58,035 nucleotides of DNA. Origin: Rozella allomycis CSF55. Its lineage: Eukaryota. This document shows positions 1 through 58,035 of the stretch, piece by piece (the first letter of the stretch is position 1; every line of letters starts with the position of its first letter). Made by a program: the position numbers and the translations under genes. Where the stretch lies: positions 1 to 58,035 of the forward strand of contig KE560897.1 in the NCBI GenBank assembly GCA_000442015.1. Direction: 5' to 3'. The notes beneath the pieces were generated by a model. That model was not told the origin of the DNA. It did not search any database and saw nothing but the letters and a program-made list of their open reading frames with translations.

Positions 1-1242
1 TTACTTAAATAAACTTTTTTTACTAATTAAAAAAAAAAATTTAAAAAAAATATAAAAATAAGCTACTTTAACTTTATTTTGCGTCATCTTTTCCACTAAA
101 AGCATGAGGTCTGGATAATTAGTCTGATTTAAATCAAGAACCATTTTCCTTTTCCATTTTCGTCTCCTCACTACGTTGGTCATTCCTTGCTCACAGGAAA
201 AATTACTCCAATCAGTATCGCCATATTCCCAGTCAGGGCCAACAACTCTTTCCCAGCAATTCTCAACCCAACGCCAACCGCGGGGTAAAATAAAAGCTTC
301 TTTCGGCAAATATATGGATCCGGATTGGTCACTCCAAAGTCCTCTTTCGGTTGTAAACAAGTGAGGTTGCCAATTAAGGCCAATCCACCATCTTTGATTC
401 TCGTAAGTTGAAACTGTTCGCTCAAAGATGGTTCCTTTAGGATCGTATTTCAAAGTGCAACCAGACAATTCCTCGATAATAGATGGTGATGTTAACTCTC
501 TGCGAAGAATGCACTTTAATATTTTGCCTTGAATCCTGCCAAATAGAGACATTGTGCACCTCAAGAAATCAGGAAAATAGAACCATATCAGTGCGTAATA
601 ACCAGCAAATAGAAATATATAATTGTATGGAATATAAAGATATGCGAATGTTAGTGGAAAAAGTAATCCGATTAAAAGGGAAAGTGTGTGTAGCGTTTCT
701 TTTCTGTTAGACCAATCAAGGCTATCGAAAAACAGAAATACAACTTCAATTACTCCAATAGTTTTCTCAAGAGTATTCTGACCTAATTGTACTAATGCTA
801 ACATCGAGCGACTATTTTGCGAGAAACTCCTTTTCCTCTTTCTTTCCTCTCCTTTAAGAGTAGAGTGGACTTCCGATTCTGTGCTTAAAACTAAATCAGC
901 ATTCAAAAAATCTGGAAAAACAGGCTTCGTAACATCAGAAATGGGAGTTTGGTCAAAATGATTTAACAATCGTTTTCTATTCGGAATACCTGCCAGTTTA
1001 AATTGTGCGTACGAATAGTGGAATAATATTACGTGAGGAAGAAATATAACCAATCTGAAATCGATACAAAGCGATGTAAAAATGATCAAGTAAAGGAAGC
1101 CTTCCCATTTTCTTTCCAAAGCTAAAATTTCCTGGACGAATAATTGCAATTCGATAAGAACATCTAATCTGACCAAAAGACGATTCAAATTTCTGGGAGT
1201 TTCTATGAAAGATCTAATCAATTGCTCGAATTGTTCTGACAT
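1..1242 (-). CDS. Pex23/Pex30-family peroxin with C-terminal dysferlin (DysF) domain
   Basis: TM segments followed by YENQRWWIGLNW...LPRGWRW...WEYG...VRRRKWKR, the typical dysferlin motif. The last ~20 codons (1-65) are poly-A/T and may be intron, so the true 3' end is uncertain. Confidence 0.8.
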   Translation of the reverse strand: MSEQFEQLIRSFIETPRNLNRLLVRLDVLIELQLFVQEILALERKWEGFLYLIIFTSLCIDFRLVIFLPHVILFHYSYAQFKLAGIPNRKRLLNHFDQTPISDVTKPVFPDFLNADLVLSTESEVHSTLKGEERKRKRSFSQNSRSMLALVQLGQNTLEKTIGVIEVVFLFFDSLDWSNRKETLHTLSLLIGLLFPLTFAYLYIPYNYIFLFAGYYALIWFYFPDFLRCTMSLFGRIQGKILKCILRRELTSPSIIEELSGCTLKYDPKGTIFERTVSTYENQRWWIGLNWQPHLFTTERGLWSDQSGSIYLPKEAFILPRGWRWVENCWERVVGPDWEYGDTDWSNFSCEQGMTNVVRRRKWKRKMVLDLNQTNYPDLMLLVEKMTQNKVKVAYFYIFFKFFFLISKKSLFK

Positions 1243-1299
1243 GGGGTGTTAAGCTTTAAGGATGAGTTATCGGAAATCATCTAAATTAAGTAACAACCT

Positions 1300-6203: not shown

Positions 6204-8224
6204 TTAACGTCTGTCGTTTGTTCCACTCTTTCTCTTTCCTGAAAACAAATGTTTTGGCTTTGATTCAACGTAAATACGATCAGCCTCACCTCTGGTACCC
6301 TTGAGTCCTCTTTGTTGTTTCTTTTGAATAGCCTTGAGTGCCTTCATAACAGAAGCATTCTTCACACCTGTAAGAGATTTGCCCATAAGTGGTTTCTTGC
6401 GAGTAGCTTCTTCAACTTGCATTTCATCATCAGAGTCGCTGGAACGTTTTCTCTTGACAATTGATTCTTCCATTGGAGTGGCATCCAAGCCGAGTTTCTC
6501 CAAAGAATCTTTAACAGTTTTGAAGGAAACTGATCTTGCTTTAGCTTTGGCTGAGATCGTAGTACGATTCTTTCCTTTTTCCATTCTGTGTTGTTGAATC
6601 ATGATTTGTTTCTTTTCTCTAATAAGTTTTGCCTTTTCTCTAATTTCTTCCTCTTCTGAATCAATTTCTTCTTCCTCGACAGCGTAAATACCTTGAGCAA
6701 TGAGCTTCTCTTCTTCCTCTTCTAATGCTAAAAGCTTAGCTTCAATGTCTGGATCAATAAAATCTGCAACGTTCTTTCCATCAATAATTTCTGGAATAGG
6801 ATCATATTTCCACTCATCGTTTGATAAAATGTATTTTTCTAACTAATAGATTAAAGGTAAGTTTACTCTTCAAGTCGATGTTGTAAACACCAGCACCACC
6901 ATTCATTTGTTCTAATTCTTTTTCAGTTAATGGTCTATTCGGATCATTTTCTTCAAACACCATTCTGCTCTTGACGCTTTCAGGAATAAATGGAGTTCTT
7001 TGTTTTTGATCTCTTGGTTTTGGAACAGTCAAAGTAATTCTATTCAAAACATCATTAATCTTATTGGTCTTCATTTTAATATCAACGCGGGAAGCCAAAA
7101 GTTTTTCACATGCCTAATTCTGAAATTTCGATAAATTTACTTGTTTCTTAACTTCCATTGTTCCTTCGTCCATCATACAACTCATTTCAACAAAATGGAT
7201 TCCTTCGGTTTTAAGATTCTCAAGGAGCATTCTTGATTCAGGCTTCAATTCATCATATTTGATAACGTCAATCTTGTTAATAACACAGATCATTGGCTTA
7301 TTAGCAAAGAGGGGTTTAACGGTCTCCAAAAGCTTAACTTGTTCAGTAATAGAATAACCACATTGCTCAGAAATATCAATGAAGAACAAAACACAAGCAC
7401 GAAGATGAGCAAGAGCAGTGATGGATTGCATTTCAATTGTATTCATTTCCTCCAATGGATGATCCAAAATACCAGGAGTATCAATCTTAATAAAGGTTTT
7501 CACATTTAATTACCACTTGCCATCTAAGATAGTTGTAATCCATATGACCAACAAACAATGATTTCGTAGTGAAAGCGTATGGTTGAACATCAACTTCAGC
7601 TCTTGTCAACTTGTTCATAAAACTAGATTTTCCAACATTAGGATATCCACACAACAAGAGTGTACGCGTGTTTGGATCAATAGAAGGCAATCTCGCCAAA
7701 TGCTGGCGAATTTGTTCCAAATAAACAAGAGAATCTTTTTGTTTCTTCATAATAGTCGCCATTCTATCTATAATATTTGTAATTATTACCTTCCCAACGC
7801 AGCTCTCTTCAACTGCTTACATCTATAAAGCGAGTCACCAAACTTCAAAAGCCTCACATAATCTTTCCCAACTTGTTCAATCAAATGTCTAGCTGTATTA
7901 ATCTGTCCAAGCGCCAATTTATAATGATCTCTGTCATAAAGAACATTCATCAAATCCGCATAAAATGGATGAACTTCCTACGTATTTTTTCCAAACAATA
8001 ATTACATCTAATTTCGGGAAACTAGTAAGAATTTGATTTAATTTTTCATCAAAAGCATCCTGTGTAAACTTGACCTTGCGCATGTAGAATTTGCGGATAC
8101 GAGAGATTTTGTAATTTGGATGAATAACAGTAGGTGTCTTGCGGTTGGTTTTAGATAAAACTATATCGATAAAATCGGCCGAAGTGGGGACCACTTGAAT
8201 CTTTTTAAAGTTGTATAGAGACAT
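6204..8224 (-). CDS. NOG1: Nucleolar GTP-binding protein 1 (GTPBP4), multi-exon
   Basis: [43 protein letters not shown], and C-terminal [10 protein letters not shown]. Confidence 0.98.
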
Positions 8225-15106: not shown

Positions 15107-16964
15107 ATGTATAAATTCCATGAATTTTCCGAAATGATTTTGAGAACTTTACGGCAGTCTTCTTGTTTGTACAAAATTAACCCTTCATTACTTTCAAGAA
15201 GGCTTCTCAATTATGCAGATTTCTTATCAGTATATAGAAGGGCACCTTCCCGACATTTTTATAGTTCGCCAGATAACTTTAACTATTATTACCGAAAAAG
15301 AGGGGAATGGACAAGAAGAAAGTTATTTAATCTTGGAATGTTTGGGATCTTTGTGGGTACCGTGGCATATTTTACAGACATCAACACTTTTGCTTCAGTT
15401 CTTGTCTCTGCAGGCAATTTTCTTGATTACGATCGTAAATAATATTCTTTAAAATATTTCAGTTGCATTAAGAAACTTAATAGCGGATAGTTTAAGCAAA
15501 AGATGCGGATGCGAGGTTTCAATTGAATCGAGTATAGTTCCTCGTTGGGGTGAAAGAAAGATTCAACTAAGTAATATCCACATAAAGAAGAATCCCCTGA
15601 AAAAGGAAGATGGGATGTCTGATAATGAATACAACAAATTGAACAATTTTACGAAATATAATGTTTTCATTGAAACCTTTGAATTTTCTCTTTCCTTATC
15701 AAGATTATTGACAGGAGAAAGTTTTATTAAATCTTGTACAATATCGGGGATGAGGGGTGAAATAGGTAATGCTGATAATTTGGAGTAATTTATGACAAGA
15801 GAGGATTAGATTGGGAAGGCTGGATACCTGAAAGATTGAAACCCAACCAAATTGATTTAGATATAAAGAACGTTGTATTAAAAGATTGCAAATTTACTTT
15901 GCTATATGATAATTTCAGACCATATAATGTGTATATAATATCTTCAAATTTACCCCGACTAAGGCCTCAATGGCTCATGTATGATATACTCAATGCTGAA
16001 TCAATTGTGGGCATGTATGAAAATTCTCTGTTTTCAATGTATGCACCTCAGTTTGGGCTAATAAACAATCAGACGAAGGAATCCATAGAATACAAGAATA
16101 TAAGACATCTGAAAATTGATGGCATTCCGATCGACCATTTTACTTGGAATGCGTTGCCACCATTTGGTTGGGTGAGAGAAGGTTCAGTTGACGTATCTTG
16201 CGTCATTCAATTGCCCCTTTCAGAAAGAGAGATACTTAGTGAAGAATCGGTCAATAACATTAAGCAAACCATTTATTCTTGGCATCAAAAAATACTTAAC
16301 AAAGATAGTGTCGAAGATTCTGAAAATGTCATACTTGAATGGTTCCTTCAAAGTGAAATATCCAAAGGATTGAAGCACTACGAAGATTTATTCAGCAAAT
16401 CTATGTTTGCGATAAAGCTCAATGAATATATTTCAAAGAACGAGATCTTGTTAGAGAAGACAAGAATGATGTATGATAAGTCCAAGGAATGGTTATTAAC
16501 TCACAACTGGTTTTCCGATGGCAGTATCGATCATGAAATCCCCTTTACTGATCCTCAAAGATTTGAGCCTAAACGTGATTCAATTGGTTTTCAATTTGAT
16601 TTCAAATTCAAGAATTTAAAAGCTTCTGTTCCAATGAATAACGATGTATTAAACCCTTTTCAAAATGCTTTACTCCAGCCTATTATTGGCTACATGAACA
16701 TCCATAATGTGAACCTTCCAGTCTCATGTCATTTCAGCATGTCTATCGTAAAGAATGTAAACATATAATAATTAGGATAACTTTAACGGCGGCTTAACCC
16801 TCTATGATACTGAACTTATACCAACTACAGCAGACCAACTCACTCTTTCAATGACAGCAATAATGGAGAGAGAAAAAGAAAAAATGATTCAATGGAAAAT
16901 GGCAAATGTGGCGAATTTTTTTCAACAATTGTTTTCCCCTAAAAAAGTGCAATTGATGACCTAA
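15107..16964 (+). CDS. MDM31: Mitochondrial distribution and morphology protein Mdm31/Mdm32
   Basis: SIVPRW, NFTKYNVFIE, FRPYNVYI...LPRLRPQWLMYDILNAESIVGMYENSLF, LKIDGIPIDH, PFGWV..GSVDV; three short introns. Confidence 0.9.
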
Positions 16965-31754: not shown

Positions 31755-34132
31755 TTATTTTTCAGTTTCTTCTTCAGGTTTCGAATCTTCCGGTTTTGAA
31801 TCTTCAGGTTTTAAATATTTAGGCTTCGAACGGAATGATGCAACATAACTGCATACTCCTTTGGTTGCACAATATACGTTTTTGACCCACCCCGAAATTG
31901 TTTCTGCAACGTAACTTGTACCATCAACGACGTCTTCTGGACCTTTTAAAAAGTGGTAAAGATAGACGGAAAATAAAGTATATATAGTGGCAGCATAGTA
32001 AGGATGAAGATTAAAGATTTCAACAAGGAAGTCTTTAAGATGAGAGAGAATCACAATGACAAATGAGATGATTGAAGTGAGATTTAAGAAAGGAAGCCAG
32101 GACGTGACATGATAAAGAAAAGTAAATGCTAAAGGCATAAACATGTAAATTTTAAAAGAGTCAATACCAAATTGCAGCGGACGCTTCGTAATGTCATGCA
32201 TGATTTTCTTAAACCCATTCCAAAACTTGTCCTTTCTACTTAAAGGATTAAAAACATATCTTATTCCACCAAAGCCTTTCAATTCATCGCTAGGAAGTGG
32301 AATATAAATACCGAAATATTTAAAAGTTGTTACAAGAATTAAATAAAGTGGAGCGAACTGAAGGACACGCTTTAAAGCAGTATTCTTAAGAAATCCAAAC
32401 AAAGCAGGAACCTCATTTAAAGCACCATTACCGACTCTCTTTAGATATTCAACTGCATATGAGTAGCCAAAACCTGTCGTGCCAATTACAGCAGAGAAAA
32501 CCTTCCAAGGATAAAAATACAAGAAAACTTGAAAGGCTATAAAGGCTAATTTAAGAAAAATATTCTTTTTGAAGAATTTAATTCTCTTTAAGGGTCCCTA
32601 TTGTAGATAAAATAAAAATGACTTACCTTCACTGTGGACACTATAGATGTTACTGTATTTTTAATCCCCATAGATTTTTTAGCAACCATTGATTTTGTAC
32701 TTTTAACTGAAGAAAGAAAGCTTTTTATCAATCCTGAATCTCTAATGACTTTATTGTTAATAGAAACTTTTCCGATAGTAAATTCTTTTTGATTTTCATA
32801 GTCTGTCAAATCGTTTAAGTACTTTAAATAATTTGCTGTAATTTCCTTTCTAGAAATTATTATTTTTGAAATAGCAAAAGTATCCTTGTAGCCATTAGAA
32901 CCAATGTTTAACAATAAGAATGCATAAAATGTGGCTTGATTTGCTATGGAGTCAGAATTTTCTTCATTGACAAAAAGTTCAGCAAATTTTTTCTTTAAAG
33001 CTTCAAACTTTAACCCTTTACGAGAATCAAAGTCTGACATTTGATTGGCGTTTTGCACTGCTTTTGAAAATAACTTTGTAGCAGTCTCAATTAACTCTTG
33101 ATTATTGATTATTTTATTCAAGGTGATTCTAAAATAGAAGAGAACAAAATCGATTTGATCTGGACTTGGAAAATGAATAACATCCAAGGAATACTTTTTA
33201 ATGTCATCATATGAAGTTGGTAAAAAGTTTTGGTCAAATATCAAATCAAATTTCTTCAAGTTTTCAATATGATAATTTTTGGAATCATCATTCTGCTCTG
33301 TGACTATCGTGTTCACAGTATGGATGATAATAACTTTAGCCATCAATTCTCTTCTTCCCAAAGCAATATGTTCATTCATTAAAGGTAATCCTAGAATTTG
33401 CTTATATAAATGATTAATCGCAATGACTTTATTCTTCTTTCCATCTACTCTATTGAACAATTTTCATTTACCTTTATCCATATTCATATGCGCGCTAATA
33501 AATTCAGTTAATTTCCCCTTTATCTCTGCAAGCATCTTGGCCTTTACGTCTTCGTTTTCAATAAAGTAAAATTCCAAACCAACTCTGCCCATGACCTGAG
33601 TCAATAAACTATTCAAATGCTCAAAGTCTTCAACTTTAATATCAGCAACTCTTTTTAAATGGCAACGATTAAAAAAGTTATTCACCATCTTGTAATTAAA
33701 AAACATTCTTGACTCTTCAAACTTTGCTACTCTCTCAGAAAACTTCTCGCGGGAACACTTGTTCTTTAACAATATATCAAACGCAGGATTCTTCATATGA
33801 AATAAAGCTTCCGGGGCACTAATAAGATTTTTTGTATACTTTTCATAGTAGTACAACACAAACGAATCGAGTCTCGCTTGGCACTCTTTTCTAACCGACG
33901 ACCACGATGCTCTTGGCATTTTCTCCTCGAAAATTTTCTCCATAGTATCATCATTGTGCTCAGTTTGGTTTTTAGCAACTTGGAGCATATAAGCACCGGT
34001 TTCTTCTCTGGTCTTACCAATAAGCTCACTCGTGTCACTGTCAAATACATAGCTAAAATCAGAATTATTGGGACTAAGAATCCTTGAACTTGCAAGAGCA
34101 AAGAAAAATATAAACGCACACAGTCGCAACAT
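31755..34132 (-). CDS. Lineage-specific secreted/membrane family, member 3
   Basis: Signal peptide MLRLCAFIFFFALASS; two short introns join three ORFs in frame; multi-TM C-terminus; N-domain aligns well with member 1. Confidence 0.75.
31770..31812 (-). repeat. Short coding tandem repeat (15-nt unit, KPEDS x2 plus KPEE)
   Basis: Translation KPEDSKPEDSKPEE. Confidence 0.7.
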
Positions 34133-35842: not shown

Positions 35843-38800
35843 TTATTTGGAATCAATGTTTAAATAATTTTTAATAGATTCTTCAAGAATTGAAATTTCG
35901 GAATTAAAATCTTGAATTTTCTTTTGATTAGCCGATTTAGTTTCCTGGCTTGCTTTAGTATCATAGCTTGAATGATTAATGATTTCATTTAATTTGTTTA
36001 ATTGAATTTGAATAGAAGAAATTTTCTCGTTTGCTTTTTCAATTTCAGATTTAATGTCAACAACGCCCTAGAATGAAACAAGAAGAATGAAATTACTTTG
36101 ATTAAAAGAAAGATTGAAGAATTAGCGTTGATGTTAAACACAGCGCAGCCAGAAGGAATTTCATCAGTGAAAGAAATATCGGCTAGTTCTTTAACGAGAT
36201 TGATGATGAGAGATTTATTTTTGGAGAGAATTTGATTTTGATTTGATTTGATGAATATTTTGGGGTTTGAAGTTATTTTGTAGTCAGAGATTAGAGATCT
36301 GCAACCCTTGATGATTGACAAAATGAAATCAAATTCTTCTTCTTCAATTTTGAAATCAAATTCACTCTTGTGGGTTGGAAAGGAAGAAATGCAAATAGAT
36401 TCAATTTTATTATTTTTTCTTTTTGGCAATCTTTGGAATAATTCTTCAGTAACAAAAGGCATAAAAGGATGCAACAATTGTAAACCTTTTTCAATGCAGA
36501 AAAATAAAACATTTTTAGATTGAGAATTTTCAAGATTAAATTTTACAGATTCCTAAATTTATTAAAAAAAGATCTAAATTTACAATATAAATATCACACA
36601 AAGAATACAACCAAAATGAATGAATTAAACTTGTAACATTCATAAAATTATATTCATTAAAATTCTTATCAACTTCAAGACATGTTTTATTCAATCTTGA
36701 TAAAATCCATTTATCAACCAAACTTTCATTTCCTGTAATTTTAAACTCTTCTTCTGGCACAAAATCATCACCAAATTTATTCAATGAAAATTTAACGGCA
36801 TTCCAAATCTTATTACAAAACTTTTTATAACCTTCTATTCTCAACACATCCAAATTAATCGTTCCCCCTGGCGTTATATATGAACACAATCCAAATCTCA
36901 ACGCGTCAGTCCCACAACAACTAATTCCATTGGGGAAATCAATCTCTTGCACCTTTTTGGCTCTTTCCACTTCCTTTTCAGCTAAATTTCCCATTTCTAT
37001 TCTCTTTTGCATCTCTTGCAATGTTATCCCTTCAATAACATCCAATGGATCCACAACATTCCCTTTACTCTTGCTCATCTTCTCTCCATGCGCATCTCTA
37101 ACCATCGGATGCAGAAACACTTGCTTAAATGGAACTTGGTCTGTAAAATACAATCCAAACATTATCATTCTAATCACCCAAAAGAATAAAATATCTTGGC
37201 CAGTCTCCAACAGTGAATTTGGATAAAACGTTTCAAAATCTTTCGTCTTCTTTGGCCATCCCATAATAGACATGGGCCACAACCCACTAGAAAACCACGT
37301 GTCCAACACATCCTCATCTTGCTTCAACTCAAATTCATCTCTCACAACATTATACTTTTTCATAACCTTCAAAACACACTCTTCTTCATTTCTACCAACT
37401 ACCCACTCCTCTGGTATCACTTTGCTCTTGATCAAATAAGCTGGTATTCTATGCCCCCACCACAATTGTCTACTCAAACACCATTCTCTTATATTCTCCA
37501 ACCAATGGAAATAATTCTTCTCTTGCTCCTTTGGAAATATCTTCAAATCTCCATCCTTCACTGCCTTTATTGCCCTCTCTGCCAACTCTGAACAGTCCAT
37601 AAACCATTGCATCTTAATTCTCGGCTCGATAATATCTCCAGATCTACTGCATATTGGTATCGTCATCGCATGCTTCTCTTCCTTTCTATACAATCCTTTA
37701 CTCTTCAATGCTTCAATCACTCTTTCTCTAGCCTCAAATCTAGGAACTCCTTCAAACTCTCCTCCATTCTCATTAATTGTATTGTCATCATTTAATATAT
37801 TAATAAACTCCAATCCATGTCTCTTTCCAATCTCAAAATCAGTTGGATCATGAGCCGGTGTCACCTTAACGGCCCCTGTTCCTTTATCCATCTCAGCTTT
37901 TTCATCCAACACAATTGGAATCTCCCTCTCACTAAATGGATGCTTCAATTTCTTTCCATGGAATTTCTTATACCTCTCATCCAATGGATTAATAGCAACT
38001 CCACTATCTCCAAGAATAGTCTCTGGTCTAGTCGTTGCAACAACAATCTCTTCATCTTCATTGCCAACAACCTTGTACGCAAAATGAAGAAACATTCCAA
38101 ACTTATATTCACTCTTGGGATGTCCATGAACACTCAAATATGTTCCTCCCTCAATCTCTTTATTATCAACCTCCTCATTAGATAACACTGTATTCAACTT
38201 TCCACAAAAGTTCACCAACCGACTTCCTCTGCTAATCCTTCCATCCTCATACAACCTCACAAACGCTTCAGTAACAGCCTCACTCAAATCCTACACATTC
38301 ATCCACCTCCAACACACTTACCTGATCAAGCGTAAATTTAACACGGTCCCAATCATTACTAGCACCCAGTCTCATAAACTGCTCATAGATCCTATTCCCA
38401 TACTGCTCCTTCCACTTCCAAACCTCATCCAAGAATTTTTCTCTCCCAAGCTCGTGTCTCGTAACTTTCCTCTCCTTCATCAACCTCTTCTCAACAACCG
38501 CCTGCGTCGAAATCCCAGCATGGTCACAGCCAGGCACATACAACGCAGCATACCCGTGCATCCTCTTCCATCTCGTCAACGCATCCTGCACTGCAACAGT
38601 CAAAGCATGCCCCAGGTGCAGCGAGCCAGTCACATTCGGCGGCGGAATAGGAATCACATACGCGCCCTTCTTGTTCTCCGCCGGATCCCCATACACCTCG
38701 GGCTTAAAATACCCCTGCTTCTTCCACCACGCATACCATCCTGCTTCAACAGCCATCGGCTTATACGTCGACAACATCGGCTGGCTCATATCTACCATCC

Positions 38801-50185: not shown

Positions 50186-53100
50186 TTAATCACTTAAACT
50201 GCAAAGCGCCGCCACTCCTCTATTAATCCAATGCGATTCCTGCAAATCAGTCGGCAGTCTAATAGAAAGCACATAATTAGTGCTATGCCCCGTCGTCGAC
50301 AATGTGCCTCTTCTCGTCGCCGTCTTGTAAACCGGACAATCATACGCATTCCTCTGCGCGATTTTTGCTCGATCCATCGGCTTGAACCACAGCACAGGCA
50401 GCTGGTCAAACAAAACTTTAGGCAGCGATTCAGCGAGCATATGCGTTTCCGAATTCCAGCGCGCGCCTTCAAGGTACAGTCCGTGCACATACACACCATC
50501 AACCGGCGGCACTTTGGTGTTGGTGCTGCCATCTAGAATTTCAAAATCTAATGCGAGGATATCAATTGGCAGAGAGAATTTGCGTGCATAGTTTTGTAAG
50601 CAGCCGGTGAGAAACGATTGCGTGAAAAAGAAGCCTGAAATCCAAAAGACGGGTGGTGGGCCGTTATCGTACCAGCTTTGGAAAAAGGATATGCGATTGA
50701 GGAAATCTGAAAAGTAGCTGCCGAGTGGTTTGATTGATGGATACGATTTGCTCAACCACAGTGGAGGTATTTTGGCAATGAGCATTGATTGAGCGGTTGT
50801 TTCTAGTTGCGGAGTCATAAGAACGAGTCCTTTTAATGCCTTGAGAAGTGAATTGAGAGATGACCGAATGAGATCCAAAAGAGCTTGGAATCTGATGCAT
50901 TCCTGGATGAGAACTGTGTTCATGCTATCATTGTAATTAACAGGATACTTTGTAGTGATATCAACCATATTAAAGTCATTGGGTAGTCTATTAAGTAAAT
51001 CCGAAGCTAGATCGATGATTAATTGTTCATTAGATTGACCACCCCTTGATTCAGTAGAATTTTGTGTCAAAAGAACAGCAGACAAGAGATTGAAAGTTTC
51101 CAGTTGATTCTTTGTAATATCAGCGTTGTCATTCAAGTGAAATACTTCAGGTTTAGAATCCATTGGCAGATTTTTGATAAATTCGAGGTACGAATCAAAA
51201 GAAGAATTTGTAGGCCGAGGAGCGAAATAAATTCCACTGTTGGAAAACTTGTAATCATCGTCCATAATCTTGGGAGTGTAGAAAATGTTCAATAAACTCA
51301 TCAAAGTTCTTCTATCCTTGTCATCAGTTACTCTTCCACCATACTATTAAAATAAATGAATAAACTTACGTTGCATTCACCAGTTAAATATCTTAGCGCA
51401 TCAAAAGGAATTTCATCGTAGCTATTCAAAAAGATTCTCACTTGTCTCGCACTAATTCTCAAATCTGTATCATCTTTAATCAAAAATATTAAGCATGGTT
51501 ACTAAATTCATAAGGAATATTCCAACCAATCGGACCATACTGCCTCCTCTCCTGGATAACAGCATGGAAGAAGCACAACCCAAACAATAATTTCTCAAAA
51601 GCGACTTGTTTATTGCATCCATTAAAGAACGAAGGCTCAGAGATGGGATCTCCAGTGAATGATCTATAAAGATTAGCTTTCAATCCCTTTGGAGGTTCCG
51701 TTGTCATTTTCACACCATTTTGCAGAATGGAAACAGGAAACTTTTCAGAAGGATACGAAGTCAACCAAAGTCTAAAATTTGGATTAGTTTGATCAGGCGA
51801 CAACTCTTCAACAATCTGCTCAAGCGACGGGAGCCAGGAGACAGCTAAATGGCAGTTCTGGAGAATCACCCAGGACCCTTCAGAAATGGCTCTTGTGATA
51901 ATCCTGCTAGCGATAACCCCCTGGCCCTGTCCAAGCGAAATTGAGCTGATCTTCTTGTCATCAAATCCCTTTGATTCAGCAAACTTTAGCAACCCAGTCA
52001 TTGGATCAGCACCAGGCGACAAGACAAATATCAATGGCGTTGTTGGACTGCTATCACTGTAACAAGAAGACAGCTCAAATGGCGGTGGTTCAACAAACTC
52101 ATTGCCAAGCGACTCTTTAACAAACTTTTTAACACCAGGCACAAGCTTATCAGAACGGAAACACCTCAACACTATCAGTTTCTGGAATAGAGATAATTCA
52201 GAATCCCATTTCCCTGGCAATGGCAGTTCATGTGGATCAGCATGATCATTAAAGTGTTTCCAATCATTCAAATTCAAAGTGAAATCAGCGAGAAATGAAT
52301 TAAAAGCAGGTAAATTGATCAATCTGTTTAATTCAGCCCAAGTTTTCTCTGATATCCACGACTTGTCAGGATTTGGCGGGATTTCCTTTTCAATAGACAA
52401 GCCACCAGTTAGCAAAAATCGCCATTCTTCTTCATTAATTTTATCGTGAGATTTAAGAATAGAAGAACAAAGCAAGAGAGAAAACACAAGTTTATCTTTT
52501 TCAAACAGAGATCGACAGACATTGTTGTATAGAGATTTAGTGAAATGATTTTTCAGATTTAGCAGGCGGTCTGAAACATTTGAAGACTTTTCGCTGTTTT
52601 CAATTGAAGAAATAAACAGATTAATGAACCATGGGAGAGAGTATTGGTACATTGGCTCAATATTAGCTAAATCAGAAATACAAAAAAACAAGATAGAAGA
52701 ATGAGTAGCAATTGAAGTGTATCCTAATCGAATTTCATCGATTTCTTTTTCTGTTGCTTCTGCGGTTGCTTGCTTTTCTTTCACTTGATTAGCTAAAACT
52801 TTTGAAGAAGATAAGATTTGAATTGCAGTTTCATCTTCTAAAATATTCCCTTGCGATGATGAAAGAATTTCTAAAATTTTATCTTCAATTTCTTTCAATT
52901 GTCGTTTATTGTCTGCTGATTGAACGATTAATTGATTTTTCATTTCTTCCAATTCTGGTCTTTCCTTTGCTATAGTAATGCCTAAGTAAGTTGTGAATAT
53001 CTATGTTACCTATATTAGTCTTTAATAACCTATTTACCTAGTAATTGATCTTCAAGCCCCTCTTTAGTTATCATAAAATTGATAATAGTAACTTTAGTAG

Positions 53101-56100
53101 AAATTTCAGGCAAATAATGCGGATTCCTCAGCTTTGTCGTAATATAAAACCTAAAATCATGCGAAAACTCAATAACGGAATCCCCAATCCTAATAAACAA
53201 CTGCCCACCCTGCTTAAACGTCTGCTTCAACAACAACGGCTCCAACACTGGGTCCAACTCTTCACCCACATTCTCCAACAGAACTGGCGTCCCAAACTGA
53301 ATTGCATTCTCCAACGTTCTCATGTAATCCGCGTCAGACAGTTTAATCACCTGTAAGCCCCTTGATTTCTCCATATTCTTAATCCACCTATTAGCCTGCC
53401 CCTGTGGATCTATCATCAGCGGCCATCTAGCTGTATTAGACGAAATCACAGCATTGTCAATCGAAAACGAATCATTCGGAAGCCCATTAATAATCCACTT
53501 TCTAATATTCACAGGCTCACCCAAAGTATTCGCAATCTTAATCGCAGAAGAACTGGGAATCTTCTTTTCTTTGCATATCTTTATCCAATCATTCAAACAC
53601 TCATCTCTAAAACTTTTGGTAAAGGCACCCAAATAAGCCACAGATCCAGACGCAATCAAAACATCACCTAACTCACCAACTAATAATCAATCTACCCAAC
53701 AGCGTCTCATAAACAATATCCAACTCTTCAGCAACCCTCGTCCATCTCTCTTTCTCATCTCCAAGCGAATTAATCAGCTTTTCCGCTCTCACAAGCTGTT
53801 TCGAACAATTATCCACTTGCAGTTCCAAAGATTCCTTCTTTTTCGTCATTTCTTCAAACTTTAGCTCCAACTTGGTCATCCTCTCTTCAACAGATTTCAG
53901 CTGCAGCCTCTTTTCAGTCAACTTTTGCATCGTTTCAGCCAACTCCTTTTCAGCAATCGCCAACGCTTCCTTCTTGGGCGCAACCACCTTGGCCACCCTG
54001 TCGTAACACTCCATCGCTCTCACCCATCTACACAGCCCTTCAGCTGCCGACGACGCATTCTTCACCTATCATTACATCTATTGAAACAAATTACTTTTTC
54101 AGGATCAAATTCAGGATTGTCCATATACTTTTGCCTAATCTGTTTCATTATAGCCGGCTGTATATTATCTCTATCATAAGTTCTCAACGAATCCAGAAAC
54201 TTCATATCAGACATCATCGTCTTTGCTGGCCCCCAATAGTCATCAATCTTCTTGCCAGGCGAATTCGGATCTGGTATTTTCACGCTCTTCACATCCTTCA
54301 TTATACAAACAGCCTCCATCACCAGCTTCACATTGCCTATCCCAATAAACCACTTTCATTACCAGGCGGAGACTTCATTGACTTTAGCAGCGTTATATCC
54401 TGCGCCTTCAAAGTATCCAAAGCAGCCAACGCAGCTTCAAGAGCCGGCAGCGCTTCCGCCAGATCATGCTCACACTCCTCCTTCATTCTCGTTGAACTCG
54501 CCGCTTGCTCACTTGCAACCGCTTCATCCTTTTGCACAACAACTCTAACCTGCTGAACTTCATGCGACTCTTTCTCAATCTGTTTCATAATAACGTCAGT
54601 CTCCTCCTTTGTTTTAATCAACTCTGGCTGCAGCGCTTCCAATTCTTTCTGCATTTTGGCCACCGACAGAGACGCAAATTTAAGCTTTTCCAATCCATTC
54701 ACATACCTGAATCTATAAGTGGAAATTTCTTCTTGTTTCTGCTTTAATAAACTCTTGAATGTTTTCAGTAGCTCTAAATATGAAGTTGGAGTGACATAGT
54801 TTCTTCTTTTGAGTTCTGAATAGTACTTTTTTGAAAGGGAAATGACGCTGTTGTGAAAGTACATGCACATGAATGAAATGTTGTCGATTGGAATGTCTTT
54901 GAAATCCATCACACTGAGAAATTTATTAGCAACAATTTTAAGAGCATCTTCAGGCCATGTTTGGTACCAAGCTATTGTACAACAATTAATAATGGATGGG
55001 TATTGTCTCAATCTAACTCTGAACACATCACCAATAGGACTCATGCACAATACTATATGAAGATTTTCACAACATCTATCAGTGAAACATTTCATTACAG
55101 CATTGGGTCCCTGTACACTTGGATTATTACTTTTAATTAATTCTGTTATGTTTTGTTTATCTTCTGCTGTTAACAGATTTGGTACTTGCCCTGAATTCAA
55201 TAGATTGTTTATATCTTGAAGGAATGTTTCATTCTTTATTTGATTGTCTGAAAATAGAAACACAACTTGTTTGTCTTCTCCACCCGCCTTTTTTAATAAA
55301 CCTCTAAGAAAATCTTGCCAATCTGCGTAACCAAAATTCTTTGATATTTCAACTTGAAACAAATCAATATTCTTAATATACGCTGCCAATCTTTTCAAAT
55401 AGAAATAAAATTAATTACCTAGATTAAACATAGATTATGTATTGGTTACCTGGTTAATGATTGTCTTCCACTGCCACCAACACCAACTAACAACATATGG
55501 CCTCTTGGTTGTTGCAGCACTCTACTAATCCTCAACAAATGTTCAATAGCAAACCTAAGTAACAAATTTAACAAATAATTTACCTAATTTCAAACTACAA
55601 AAACCACTTTACCTATAATTAACCCCTCAACACCATTTTACCTAAACATGACCAAATCCATCGGCTTCTTTGACAACGCATTATGATCCACCAAATACTT
55701 TTCAATCAACGCAGCCAACTCGTCAAACCTAACAATCTCTCTATAATATTTCTGATTCTCTTCGCCCGGCACAAAATCACAAAACATTAATTTGCGCAAA
55801 TCAGACTCTACAATCTCACTCTCGCTCTTGTATTGCTCCATACACGATTCAAAGGAATTATTAAATGAACTGTTCACAACATCTCGTATCAGAGTAAAGA
55901 ACCATTGGCGGTCAGAATCGTCCACTAGTCGGTCGTAGAACACGCGGTACACTTCGTGTGTCCAGAGTCTGACCAGCTGGTCTTTACTGGCAATACTCTT
56001 ACTACAACTAGTCAGTATTCCTATCAACTAAAACTTCAAATGTTTACCTTTCACTACTCGAGCAAAGTCTCTAAGATTAAACGTATAATGACTCTTGGCT

Positions 56101-58035
56101 GGCGTCGGCAGTAGATTCTTCATAGACTCTCTATAAACTCTTCTCGTAGCTTCAACAACTCGACCACCAAGCGAAACAATCTCTGCACTAAACTGCTTTG
56201 AGAAATGCCAATCAATAATAGTCTTGAATATTCTATCCAACGTCTGATCATCAAAATTGGTTAATCCAATGGCATTAAAATGACCTTTCAAACTCAACTG
56301 ATTCAATTACCCAAATATCTAGGTGTGACAACATTCTTTGCAGTTGTAGCAACCATCGCAGTAATAAACTGAATATCAACAAACTCTTGCATGTTCTTTT
56401 CATTCAAATTATACCAACCGCCATGATCCATCCACTGGCGAAGTAATTCTATTGGCGGCTGTGCTCCATACTGCTCTTTCAGTGGCATTGACAAATCATC
56501 AACAAAGATTAAACACTTTTTGCCAATTGGAGGTCCAAACACTCCCTTTCTTCTCTTTTCTATTTTAGATTCAATCATTTCTTGCGTTTGGTTGCATGTT
56601 GTTGTTGCTGAAAAGGTTATAAATATTTGATTAAACTTTTCTGCAGATAATTTCTTTGAAAGCACATCTTTTATATAAGCACTTTTACCTTGTAATGTTA
56701 ACAATAGTTTCTTTTACCTATATATATTCAACTTAGACTTCTGATTACCTAGTCTCAATAACACTATCTCTAATTACCTGTTCCAGTTGACCCAACAAAT
56801 AATACAGCCTTCATATTAACAACCAACATCTTCAAAAGATAAGAATATTTAGCAGTATCAGCAGTCTCTACCAAGATTTCTTCATATTTAGCATTCAATG
56901 GAATAACTGTTTTATTTATAGTTGAATTCCAATGAACCCATTCACCATCCTTTAAACAATAATCATACACATTCCCAGGCACGGCAGATTTCAATTCTAA
57001 CTTTGGAATAATTGACTGTTTTAAGAATGCGTCAAATTTTGTTCTTCCTTCTTCGTTTAGGCAGCCACCGAGAGACCAAACCAAGCAAAACAAAAAGACC
57101 ATTGACATAGGGTTTGAATTAGCTGAATTCGCATTAGAATTATTAGAACTAAACGTATTTGAATTGATATCATTGGAAATGTAAAAACTCTCAATCATAT
57201 TCATCAAAGAAACCACCAAATTAGAATCCTGCGTCTGACACATCTCCCCACAATTCCCTCTAACAAAGCCCAAACACTCATCCACCAGCTCAAACAGCGG
57301 CACATACCCACCATTAATCCACCTCAAACTCTGGTTCGCACCCGCATTCAATTCACACTTTCTCAACCACGAAACAAACAGCGGCTTCCATCCAAGACTC
57401 GACGGCTGCATATATATCATCCCACACCTGCTCACAGTCGCAGGAGAGGCAGCCTCCAGATCCTTCACCTCGAACATCATGCTCATCGTAGAAGACAGTT
57501 GTATAATCTCGCCGCTCGTCAAACAAAGCTTCTTGTTGTCGTCCAGCACTGTATTCATATTCTCAATCCAGATAGCATCCACTGGACCATCAAACACTAT
57601 CCACTTTCTGTCGGGGCTCGTTGATGATGAAAATGTGCGGAAAATAACAGCCAACACTCCGTCAGACCATTCATGCGTTATTTGGTCGAATTGGCCATAC
57701 AGTTGGCCCATTGTAATTGATTTGGGATTAATAACTGACACTTGCACTTTTTCATTCATTTCTGTTAATGCTTTCTGCAGAACTTTGTAACATGCTGTTT
57801 TGCCACTGAAGGGTTCTCCTACAAGCATAAATCCATGTCTAACCAGCATCATTTCATACACTTGCAACACCTTTCAAACATAAAATTAAAGTTTACTTTG
57901 TCAATGAATACAGGGACTGGTTGAAGGTTTAATTTTTCACATGATTCTGTTATAGATTTTATTAAATTTCCGTGATCAGCTTTTGGCAATTCAGTTCCCG
58001 GAAACAAATCAGATATTATACCTTTTGAGATTAAA
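50186..58035 (-). CDS. Axonemal inner-arm dynein heavy chain (DNAH3/7/12-like), 5' end outside the window
   Basis: P-loops [25 protein letters not shown]; stalk/microtubule-binding region; SLGQGQG; C-terminal [15 protein letters not shown]...HWINRGVA. Confidence 0.96.
52982..53037 (-). other. Stacked intron, 2 units (28+28 nt)
   Basis: gtaaataggttattaaagactaatatag|gtaacatagatattcacaacttacttag between DQLLG and [11 protein letters not shown]. Confidence 0.85.
55391..55449 (-). other. Stacked intron, 2 units (31+28 nt)
   Basis: gtaaccaatacataatctatgtttaatctag|gtaattaattttatttctatttgaaaag within RQSLTR|LAAY. Confidence 0.85.
55555..55641 (-). other. Stacked intron, 3 units (29+29+29 nt)
   Basis: gtaaaatggtgttgaggggttaattatag|gtaaagtggtttttgtagtttgaaattag|gtaaattatttgttaaatttgttacttag within MDLVMFR|FAIEH. 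Confidence 0.9.
56689..56777 (-). other. Stacked intron, 3 units (29+31+29 nt)
   Basis: gtaattagagatagtgttattgagactag|gtaatcagaagtctaagttgaatatatatag|gtaaaagaaactattgttaacattacaag, splitting the P-loop GSTGTG|KS. Confidence 0.9.

Follow-up and report, generated by a model that had tools for sequence, protein, structure and literature searches.

The question raised by this locus is what the four longest introns of a gene otherwise carrying introns of less than 30 nt are made of, how they may be removed, and how they may have arisen. The gene is located at the right end of a 58,035-nt stretch of Rozella allomycis DNA (contig KE560897.1, referred to below as the window) and encodes an axonemal dynein heavy chain, which from its sequence is predicted to be flagellar and of the inner-arm, DNAH3/7/12-like type.

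The dynein gene and its introns

The window covers the C-terminal 2,446 codons of the gene, which runs off the right end. There are 12 intron positions in this part, of which eight are single introns of 26-29 nt and four are longer (89, 87, 59 and 56 nt). The latter, called stacks S1 to S4 for the reason given below, are listed here together with the gene and the single introns, in the direction of transcription.

50186 to 58035, minus strand: axonemal dynein heavy-chain gene (homologue search; tblastn with P0002, P0005, P0008 and P0011; open spliced frame)
57871 to 57896, minus strand: single intron, 26 nt (stop test, open spliced frame)
56689 to 56777, minus strand: stack S1, 89 nt; units 56749-56777 (29 nt), 56718-56748 (31 nt) and 56689-56717 (29 nt)
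56285 to 56310, minus strand: single intron, 26 nt (tblastn, stop test)
56021 to 56047, minus strand: single intron, 27 nt (tblastn, stop test)
55555 to 55641, minus strand: stack S2, 87 nt; units 55613-55641, 55584-55612 and 55555-55583 (29 nt each)
55391 to 55449, minus strand: stack S3, 59 nt; units 55419-55449 (31 nt) and 55391-55418 (28 nt)
54337 to 54362, minus strand: single intron, 26 nt (tblastn, stop test)
54066 to 54094, minus strand: single intron, 29 nt (tblastn, stop test)
53668 to 53695, minus strand: single intron, 28 nt, starting with GTAG (tblastn, stop test)
52982 to 53037, minus strand: stack S4, 56 nt; units 53010-53037 (28 nt) and 52982-53009 (28 nt)
51474 to 51502, minus strand: single intron, 29 nt (tblastn, stop test)
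51344 to 51369, minus strand: single intron, 26 nt (tblastn, stop test)

The four long dynein introns are chains in which two or three complete mini-introns follow one another head to tail, with zero-length exons between them. A previous reading of the sequence alone had claimed that the long introns are exact multiples of two or three units that start with GTAA, end with AG and are joined at AG/GT (the slash marks the splice boundary) without an exonic base, and this description holds in every instance. The stacks divide into 29+31+29 (S1), 29+29+29 (S2), 31+28 (S3) and 28+28 nt (S4); all ten units, 28-31 nt long, have the GTAA start and the AG end, and the six internal joints all read AG/GTAA with zero exonic bases between the units. 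At each joint a complete AG is followed by a complete GTAA, such that both ends of every unit are intact before splicing, and the six AGGTAA joints are perfect at 36 of 36 bases. S1 falls within the Walker-A codons (Gly/Lys-Ser), and S2 and S3 are set apart by an exon of 105 nt (55450-55554). The exon following S1 opens with a donor-like GTAAAAG.

The claim that the conserved dynein reading depends on the removal of each whole stack was borne out as well. The outer borders of every stack coincide exactly with exon ends in tblastn comparisons with P0002 (71% identical), P0005, P0008 and P0011; excision at all 12 positions leaves 2,446 open codons with zero stops, and a premature stop appears in 20 of the 20 dynein products that retain at least one stack unit. 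The length of a unit is never divisible by three (0/10, versus 11/36 single introns).

It could be argued that the stacks are a chance pattern or an artefact of assembly or sequencing, a view for which we found no supporting point and to which we give next to no credence. Given the composition, the analytically estimated chance of such a partition is 1.3e-3 for the 56-nt, 1.2e-3 for the 59-nt, 1.6e-6 for the 87-nt and 1.4e-6 for the 89-nt stack, which gives a joint probability of 3e-18 for the four. As a background control, a looser search of both strands of 80 unrelated metagenome loci (1.04 Mb) returned 14 two-unit chains and no three-unit chain. The possibility of an assembly artefact, checked in the DNA contigs of four runs (X1, X5, X6 and X8), is countered by the absence of any unit-sized insertion or deletion in the stacks of these contigs. 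S4 is present in the contigs of all four runs, with a low-depth C>T at position 53030 in the X8 contig. S2 and S3 are both whole in the X1 and X5 contigs; in X6, S3 is whole and S2 is split over two abutting contigs, and most of S2 is covered by one X8 contig among those listed. S1 is whole only in X1, the run that may be the source of the window. The open, homologue-matching frame, which requires the removal of every unit, also argues against an artefact.

Stack units and ordinary introns of the window

The high-confidence single introns of the 58-kb window (n=36) are 24-33 nt long, with a median of 28 nt, and 34 of them start with GTAA. The range of 26-31 nt proposed in the sequence-only reading for ordinary introns was therefore essentially right, but slightly too narrow. 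The features of these ordinary introns (GTAA at the start, AG at the end, a length of 24-33 nt, richness in A+T, and a stop if retained) are found in ten out of ten units, whose A+T content (0.66-0.86) compares with 0.55-0.87 in the singles. The 3' profiles of units and singles are also alike, with T or A at position -3. The 37 candidate singles profiled (36 once one wrong-strand match is dropped) yielded no clear branch-point motif, which makes a full set of splice signals in each unit putative. It should be noted that the units are slightly longer than the singles (mean 29.1 versus 27.9 nt, p = 0.04), so they are possibly not a perfectly ordinary sample.

A scan for introns of 35-300 nt found no long intron without internal AG/GTAA joints at the approximately 40 intron positions of the 58-kb window. 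In our reading, the candidates beyond the four stacks were either intergenic or consisted of coding sequence joined to a short intron, and they were rejected. With no one-step long intron among about 40 positions, the window provides a weak ceiling on such introns, and the intron lengths in it look quantised.

A strict chain search of the window returned six chains, of which four are the dynein stacks. Of the other two, that at 32598-32653 was rejected because a named, 100%-identical gene model retains its first "unit" as exon, and that at 7764-7820 because its first "unit" is G+C-rich and continues an open frame, a judgement made by composition only. The chains returned by looser searches of the window turned out to be an exon plus a single intron, or to have frames that were not linked. 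Rfam and tRNA scans found nothing in the window. A metagenome scan with P0001 found no relative, and one with alignment A1 gave 80 loci, with identities not exceeding 50%. Being paralogues or from distant organisms, these could not serve to compare intron positions, and they provided only the background control described above. A high-scoring scorpion ValRS match, P0122, proved to be an internally duplicated protein only.

The 29 high-confidence introns outside the dynein gene are all single (24-33 nt), and stacks thus occupy 4 of the 12 dynein intron positions versus 0 of 29 elsewhere in the window (Fisher p = 0.005). As all four are in one gene, the label "system" that had been applied to them was an overstatement; they resemble side products of introns being gained or duplicated locally more than a dedicated mechanism.

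How the stacks may be spliced

The explanation that we consider probable, and the best one for the sequence data, is that the stacks are arrays of minimal introns with zero-length exons whose units are cut out in separate reactions. Under intron definition, a GTAA donor would pair with an AG located about 26-33 nt downstream, and the spliceosome would see each unit as an intron of its own and excise it in a separate reaction. Since there would be no room for two spliceosomes on neighbours 29 nt apart, we infer that the reactions would be sequential, and any order of excision would work because every excision re-creates the AG/GTAA joint. The true exons would be joined by the last excision only, and a leftover unit would cause a premature stop. 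At the sequence level, regeneration of a functional donor can be followed in all four stacks, where AG/GTAA is again present at the joint after the first step. In addition, the upstream exon ends in AG before 4/4 stacks versus 12/36 singles, so that the donor context is identical before and after each step. Stepwise, recursive removal of the stack units is plausible.

Support for the view that such sites are read when present comes from the coding sequence. The sense strand contains 42 GTAA tetramers, versus 75.7 ± 7.6 expected from codon shuffling (0 of 500 shuffles were as low), and 13 GTAA followed by an AG 24-33 nt downstream, versus 37.6 ± 5.8 expected. GTAA ranks second of the 256 tetramers in depletion, and GTAT, GTAG and GTAC are not depleted. 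TAAG, TAAT and ATAA are likewise depleted in coding sequence, and the depletion of GTAA may partly be a general TAA effect. This avoidance suggests that a GTAA suffices for splicing if an AG lies about 28 nt from it.

Alternatively, the whole 56-89 nt could be removed in one step, with only the outermost donor in use together with the branch point and acceptor of the last unit, in which case the internal joints would be unused relics, for example of a recent tandem duplication or insertion, or would be used occasionally. The mature product would be identical, and the DNA is therefore compatible with this possibility, which is also how gene predictors would model the stacks. Introns of 50-150 nt are spliced in related fungi and microsporidia. 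Introns of 120-152 nt in relatives are mentioned in the accessible part of PMC6349667, and a complex intron of Lipomyces starkeyi can be removed in one step or in two, according to the accessible part of PMC7138796. However, removal in one step would require the outer donor to pass over one perfect acceptor or two, and to act with a branch point at two to three times the distance seen in any of the window's 36 confident introns. We found no compacting or stable RNA fold that joins the distant ends of a stack (folding z-scores of +0.44 to +0.94 for the four stacks), and hence nothing that would bring these ends together. Moreover, unused internal sites should decay like the interiors of the units, yet six of six are perfect, and the avoidance of GTAA in exons implies that such sites are read. 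We therefore consider one-step removal unlikely. How much weight the intact joints carry depends on the history of the units: if they are old duplicates, intact joints together with diverged interiors imply selection on the internal sites, and if they are recent, independent insertions, the intactness of these sites could be explained without selection.

The unit-by-unit removal that we favor also has a stricter form, which we put forward tentatively as a possibility rather than as the probable case. The spliceosome would have a hard ceiling of about 33 nt, intervening sequence would exist only as whole multiples of the minimal intron, every longer intron would necessarily be removed recursively, by way of zero-length exons, and a stack would lengthen or shorten as whole units are gained or lost.

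Origin of the stacks

The most likely sources of the arrays are a resident intron duplicated in tandem, or intron gain that recurred at an AG/GT joint; once formed, an array would be retained because each of its units can still be spliced. Rogozin has reportedly modelled intron gain in which a segment containing AGGT is duplicated in tandem. A duplication of this type, bounded by AG/GT, would create a new spliceable unit and leave the mRNA unchanged, and duplication of a whole intron flanked by AG/GT would give exactly such a stack. The accessible part of PMC13685798 lists tandem duplication of AGGT segments among the mechanisms of intron gain. Copies made in this way are expected to be similar, and the interiors of units of the same stack are so to a weak degree: their similarity is 0.467, versus 0.40 as background (one-sided p = 0.011). 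The weakness of this signal suggests that the duplication event is old, or that the origin is different. An origin of the units from exons was rejected, because their similarity to flanking exons is not clearly above background (unit versus downstream-exon scores of 5.5-11.5; background 7.4 ± 2.0). An 8-base match seen by eye between the first S2 unit and the downstream exon was not significant after a hand-estimated correction for multiple comparisons.

The stacks could also be footprints of a small introner-like mobile or templated element that hits AG/G and re-creates its own target, such that hits pile up and splicing is secondary. Consistent with this are the AG that precedes all four stacks, their clustering within 3.8 kb of one gene with the Fisher probability given above, and the P0002 ORF, which is uninterrupted across the nine intron positions between 52982 and 56777, as would fit a lineage-specific gain, although the P0002 contig may not be genomic DNA. 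However, the units have nothing in common beyond their splice ends, and units of different stacks are no more similar (0.407) than random pairs of single introns (0.401 ± 0.087), which means that the defining feature of an introner family is absent; there is also no visible target-site duplication longer than AG. An introner-like origin thus appears improbable, and duplication of a resident intron or repeated gain at its AG/GT joint remains the favored source of the arrays.

Comparison with known systems

Recursive splicing through zero-length exons has been described for Drosophila Ubx and some 200 further fly sites, and for long human introns. The stacks resemble these ratchet points in that a 3' splice site abuts a 5' splice site (AG/GTAAG-type) with no exonic base, and the donor is regenerated. 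The joints in the stacks, TAG/GTAA or AAG/GTAA, fit the ratchet-point core (10.1101/006163). On the other hand, ratchet points divide introns of tens of kb into kb-sized segments and have a polypyrimidine tract, whereas the stacks are 56-89 nt long and their segments, of 28-31 nt, have the minimal intron size of the genome. Stepwise removal has been demonstrated for ratchet points, while the stacks are known from DNA.

The sequence-only reading had described recursive splicing as mainly a matter of long animal introns, and this has to be corrected, since zero-length-exon recursion also occurs in fission yeast, a fungus. Spliceosome profiling of Schizosaccharomyces pombe by Chen et al. revealed the use of an internal acceptor abutting a donor, which the authors present as the first case of recursive splicing reported for a yeast (10.1101/226894, accessible part). 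The likeness to the stacks is that a spliceosome of a fungus uses a zero-length exon. That study reports two instances, of which the one described in the accessible part lies within an intron of 336 nt in a transcript that hosts a snoRNA. The stacks seen here are, in contrast, chained minimal introns of a protein-coding gene, and the S. pombe genome lacks a tight ceiling on intron length. Fungal stwintrons, studied by Flipphi, Fekete and co-workers, are removed by consecutive standard splicing reactions, and duplication of splice elements has been proposed as their origin (PMC7138796, accessible part). A stwintron has its internal intron placed within a donor, branch point or acceptor, so that the external intron to which this signal belongs exists only after the first reaction, whereas every unit of a stack is complete beforehand and adjoins its neighbour without nesting.

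Genomes with ultra-short introns, such as those of Paramecium and other ciliates (about 25 nt), microsporidia, dicyemids and myxozoans, likewise show narrow length distributions near the physical minimum, with intron retention caught by premature stops (PMC5014332 and PMC13644364, accessible parts). Introns of about 30 nt were noted earlier in the ribosomal protein S23 gene of R. allomycis (PMC6349667), and the accessible parts of these three papers describe no whole-number chains of a minimal unit. Our literature search, which covered openly accessible articles without their supplements and found recursive splicing, stwintrons and unrelated uses of the terms, returned no chains of minimal introns. 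Such chains appear to be new, while zero-length-exon recursion is known in flies, humans and fission yeast.

Implications

Rozella adjoins the microsporidia, whose spliceosome is reduced. If confirmed by RNA, the stacks would mean that a spliceosome can be tuned so tightly to one length that any longer interruption has to be a chain of minimal introns in order to survive. Recursive splicing would then be a possible automatic consequence of intron definition and not just an adaptation to the giant introns of animals, and new introns could arise by the copying or insertion of whole units at an existing AG/GT joint. As a practical matter, gene predictors will call stacks single long introns, or will miss them. 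If the reading with a hard ceiling is true, tandem intron duplication would be a visible and ongoing route of intron birth. Confirmation would make what sets the minimum and maximum length of introns, and how introns are gained, directly testable.

Results

The last 8 kb of the window, at its right end, encode the C-terminal part of an axonemal dynein heavy chain, as judged by homologue search, tblastn and the open frame. A homologue search with its long exon at 54364-55389 (query P0001) returned dynein heavy chains in the hundreds, led by a 1,427-residue metagenome ORF (P0002) at 71% identity; the named matches are DNAH3/7/12-type proteins with ~50-55% identity. Alignment of P0002 and three further homologues to the window by tblastn gave colinear exon blocks; the block ends mark 12 intron positions, eight of which are occupied by ordinary undivided introns ("singles") of 26-29 nt. 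The other four hold longer introns, the stacks S1-S4, which divide into units of 28-31 nt.

50186-58035, minus strand: axonemal dynein heavy chain, C-terminal 2,446 codons
56689-56777, minus strand: stack S1, 89 nt (29 + 31 + 29 nt)
55555-55641, minus strand: stack S2, 87 nt (29 + 29 + 29 nt)
55391-55449, minus strand: stack S3, 59 nt (31 + 28 nt)
52982-53037, minus strand: stack S4, 56 nt (28 + 28 nt)

The sequence-only reading had proposed that this division is exact, and so it proved: read on the minus strand, all ten units start with GTAA and end with AG, and at the six internal joints they meet as AG|GTAA with zero bases between. Its further claim, that the flanking exons join into conserved dynein motifs only once the whole stack is removed, also held: excision at all twelve positions gives one open frame of 2,446 codons and 0 stops, and each of the 20 combinations that retain at least one unit of any stack has a premature stop. 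The chain anatomy of the dynein stacks is confirmed and robust. Along the coding sequence (50189-58035, minus strand), third-position G+C varies from 0.20 to 0.60 per 100 codons, and exon G+C from 0.31 to 0.47 with a strong excess of G over C, which makes the gene a compositional mosaic.

S1 lies within the Walker-A codons, and the next exon opens (56682-56688, minus strand) with a perfect donor-like GTAAAAG, derived from the Walker-A Gly-Lys-Ser codons, so that the last excision would regenerate a donor again. The nearest AGs downstream of this motif lie at 7, 21 and 35 nt, all outside the 24-33-nt intron range; this spacing, an after-the-fact observation, may halt the ratchet.

The window uses the standard genetic code and has a G+C of 30-40%. 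An ORF-linking census gave 66 candidate short introns, 36 of them high-confidence singles of 24-33 nt (median 28), with a GTAA start in 34. The intron size of 26-31 nt initially put forward is essentially right, the actual range of 24-33 nt being a little wider. When introns of 35-300 nt were sought, the rows returned comprised the dynein stacks and, on our own reading, intergenic sequence or coding sequence joined to a short intron; none of them was a long intron lacking internal joints. Stacks occupy 4 of 12 dynein intron positions versus 0 of 29 elsewhere in the window (Fisher p = 0.005). Two other strict chains were rejected: at 32598-32653 a 100%-identical gene model retains the first piece as exon, and at 7764-7820 the first piece, going by its composition, is a G+C-rich open frame. 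The stacks are therefore concentrated in a single gene. In the MDM31/32-like gene (plus strand), the intron ending at 15785 (15736-15785) has three frame-compatible donors, giving 20 nt (GTAA), 29 nt (GTGA) or 50 nt (GTAC, 30 + 20), none of which cleanly matches the usual rule of GTAA plus 26-33 nt.

The genes of the window point to a fungus of an early-diverging lineage. The best matches of ValRS (36536-38290, minus strand) are early-diverging fungi at 55-60%, the closest being Blastocladiomycota and chytrids, and the window encodes a Pex24p-type peroxin (1-1248, minus strand) and MDM31/32 (15779-16768, plus strand), domains of fungal-type families. An ORF at 32588-33463 (minus strand) matches, at 100% identity, an NCBI protein named from Rozella allomycis CSF55. 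The S23 gene of this species has two ~30-nt introns (PMC6349667), and an intron density of 2.5 per kb of coding sequence has been published (PMC8476143).

Under a chance model with intron interiors patterned on the window's singles and units defined as GTAA...AG of 24-33 nt, the probability of division into units is ~1e-3 for an intron of 56 or 59 nt and ~1.5e-6 for one of 87 or 89 nt, giving a joint chance of 3e-18 for the four stacks. As a control, metagenome loci that bear dynein genes but are unrelated (1.04 Mb) were searched under deliberately loose settings, which yielded 14 chains of two units and none of three. The stacks are genuine DNA sequence: the possibility of an assembly artefact, raised earlier, was checked in Logan contigs of four sequencing runs (X1, a possible source of the window, and X5, X6 and X8, from other samples and studies), which carry no unit-sized insertion or deletion over the region. 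All four runs cover S4, X8 showing a single low-depth C>T at 53030; X1 and X5 contain S2 and S3 in full; X6 has S3 whole and S2 split over two abutting contigs; one X8 contig among those listed covers most of S2; and S1 is whole only in X1. A high-depth contig (290-333x) of X1 and X8 matches only four 26-33-nt patches within 51505-53125 (joints 51537>51919, 51944>52873 and 52900>53093), and probably represents a dynein paralogue with conserved stretches in common rather than a product of splicing or deletion.

On the sense strand of long ORFs (~28 kb window-wide), GTAA occurs 42 times versus 75.7 expected from codon shuffles, a ~1.8-fold depletion reached in 0 of 500 shuffles. It ranks second among the 256 tetramers, after TAAG (81 versus 140.5), and a general depletion of TAA may contribute part of the effect; GTAT, GTAG and GTAC are not depleted. 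GTAA followed by AG 24-33 nt downstream is found 13 times versus 37.6 expected. This avoidance suggests that minimal signals of this kind are acted on wherever they occur, and it looks like selection on coding sequence against cryptic mini-intron donors.

Discussion

The AG|GTAA joint of the stacks corresponds to the ratchet-point core known from Drosophila and human. In fission yeast, biochemical work has demonstrated zero-length exons (10.1101/226894). Fungal stwintrons, as described in PMC7138796, undergo consecutive removal reactions like those proposed here, but are nested, as the sequence-only reading had stated, whereas the dynein stacks are tandem. Ultra-short introns characterize genomes of ciliates, microsporidia, dicyemids and myxozoans (PMC5014332 and PMC13644364). 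In the open literature searched, including papers on short introns and intron evolution, we found no description of introns built as whole-number chains of a minimal unit.

As to origin, P0002 reads without break across every one of the nine intron positions from 52982 to 56777, and terminates where the window's dynein gene is intron-free. This end point suggests that P0002 comes from the genome of a relative whose introns sit elsewhere, which would imply lineage-specific gain or loss. The upstream exon ends in AG at 4 of 4 stacks versus 12 of 36 singles (p ~0.012), which fits slippage duplication between AG|GT microhomologies and repeated AG|G insertion alike. An introner-like family is unsupported, because units from different stacks are no more similar than random introns. 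Within stacks, the similarity of unit interiors is barely raised, at 0.467 versus 0.401 +/- 0.087 for random intron pairs (p = 0.011), yet the six internal AGGTAA joints show no deviation in any of their 36 bases; should the stacks be old duplications, selection would have maintained these sites.

At the sequence level, nothing sets stack units apart from singles: donor, acceptor, length range and A+T content all agree. A donor-acceptor distance held within ~10 bases argues that splice sites are paired across the intron, and in a stack nearest-neighbour pairing would define one unit. Each excision would regenerate an AG|GTAA joint, so that any order of removal would be possible, and would continue until the true exons meet; given the size of the spliceosome, units would be removed sequentially, not simultaneously. 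Removal of a whole stack in one step seems unlikely to us, and no fold shortening the distance between the outer splice sites was found in the stacks (folding z = +0.44 to +0.94); mixed or origin-centred readings take the remaining probability. Unit-by-unit removal is the reading towards which we lean, with some confidence; it is plausible, and partly supported by indirect sequence evidence; the intact internal joints and the avoidance of GTAA both bear on it. None of the 10 stack units has a length divisible by three versus 11 of 36 singles, and, with a stop in every partial product, failures of splicing would therefore be caught by surveillance.
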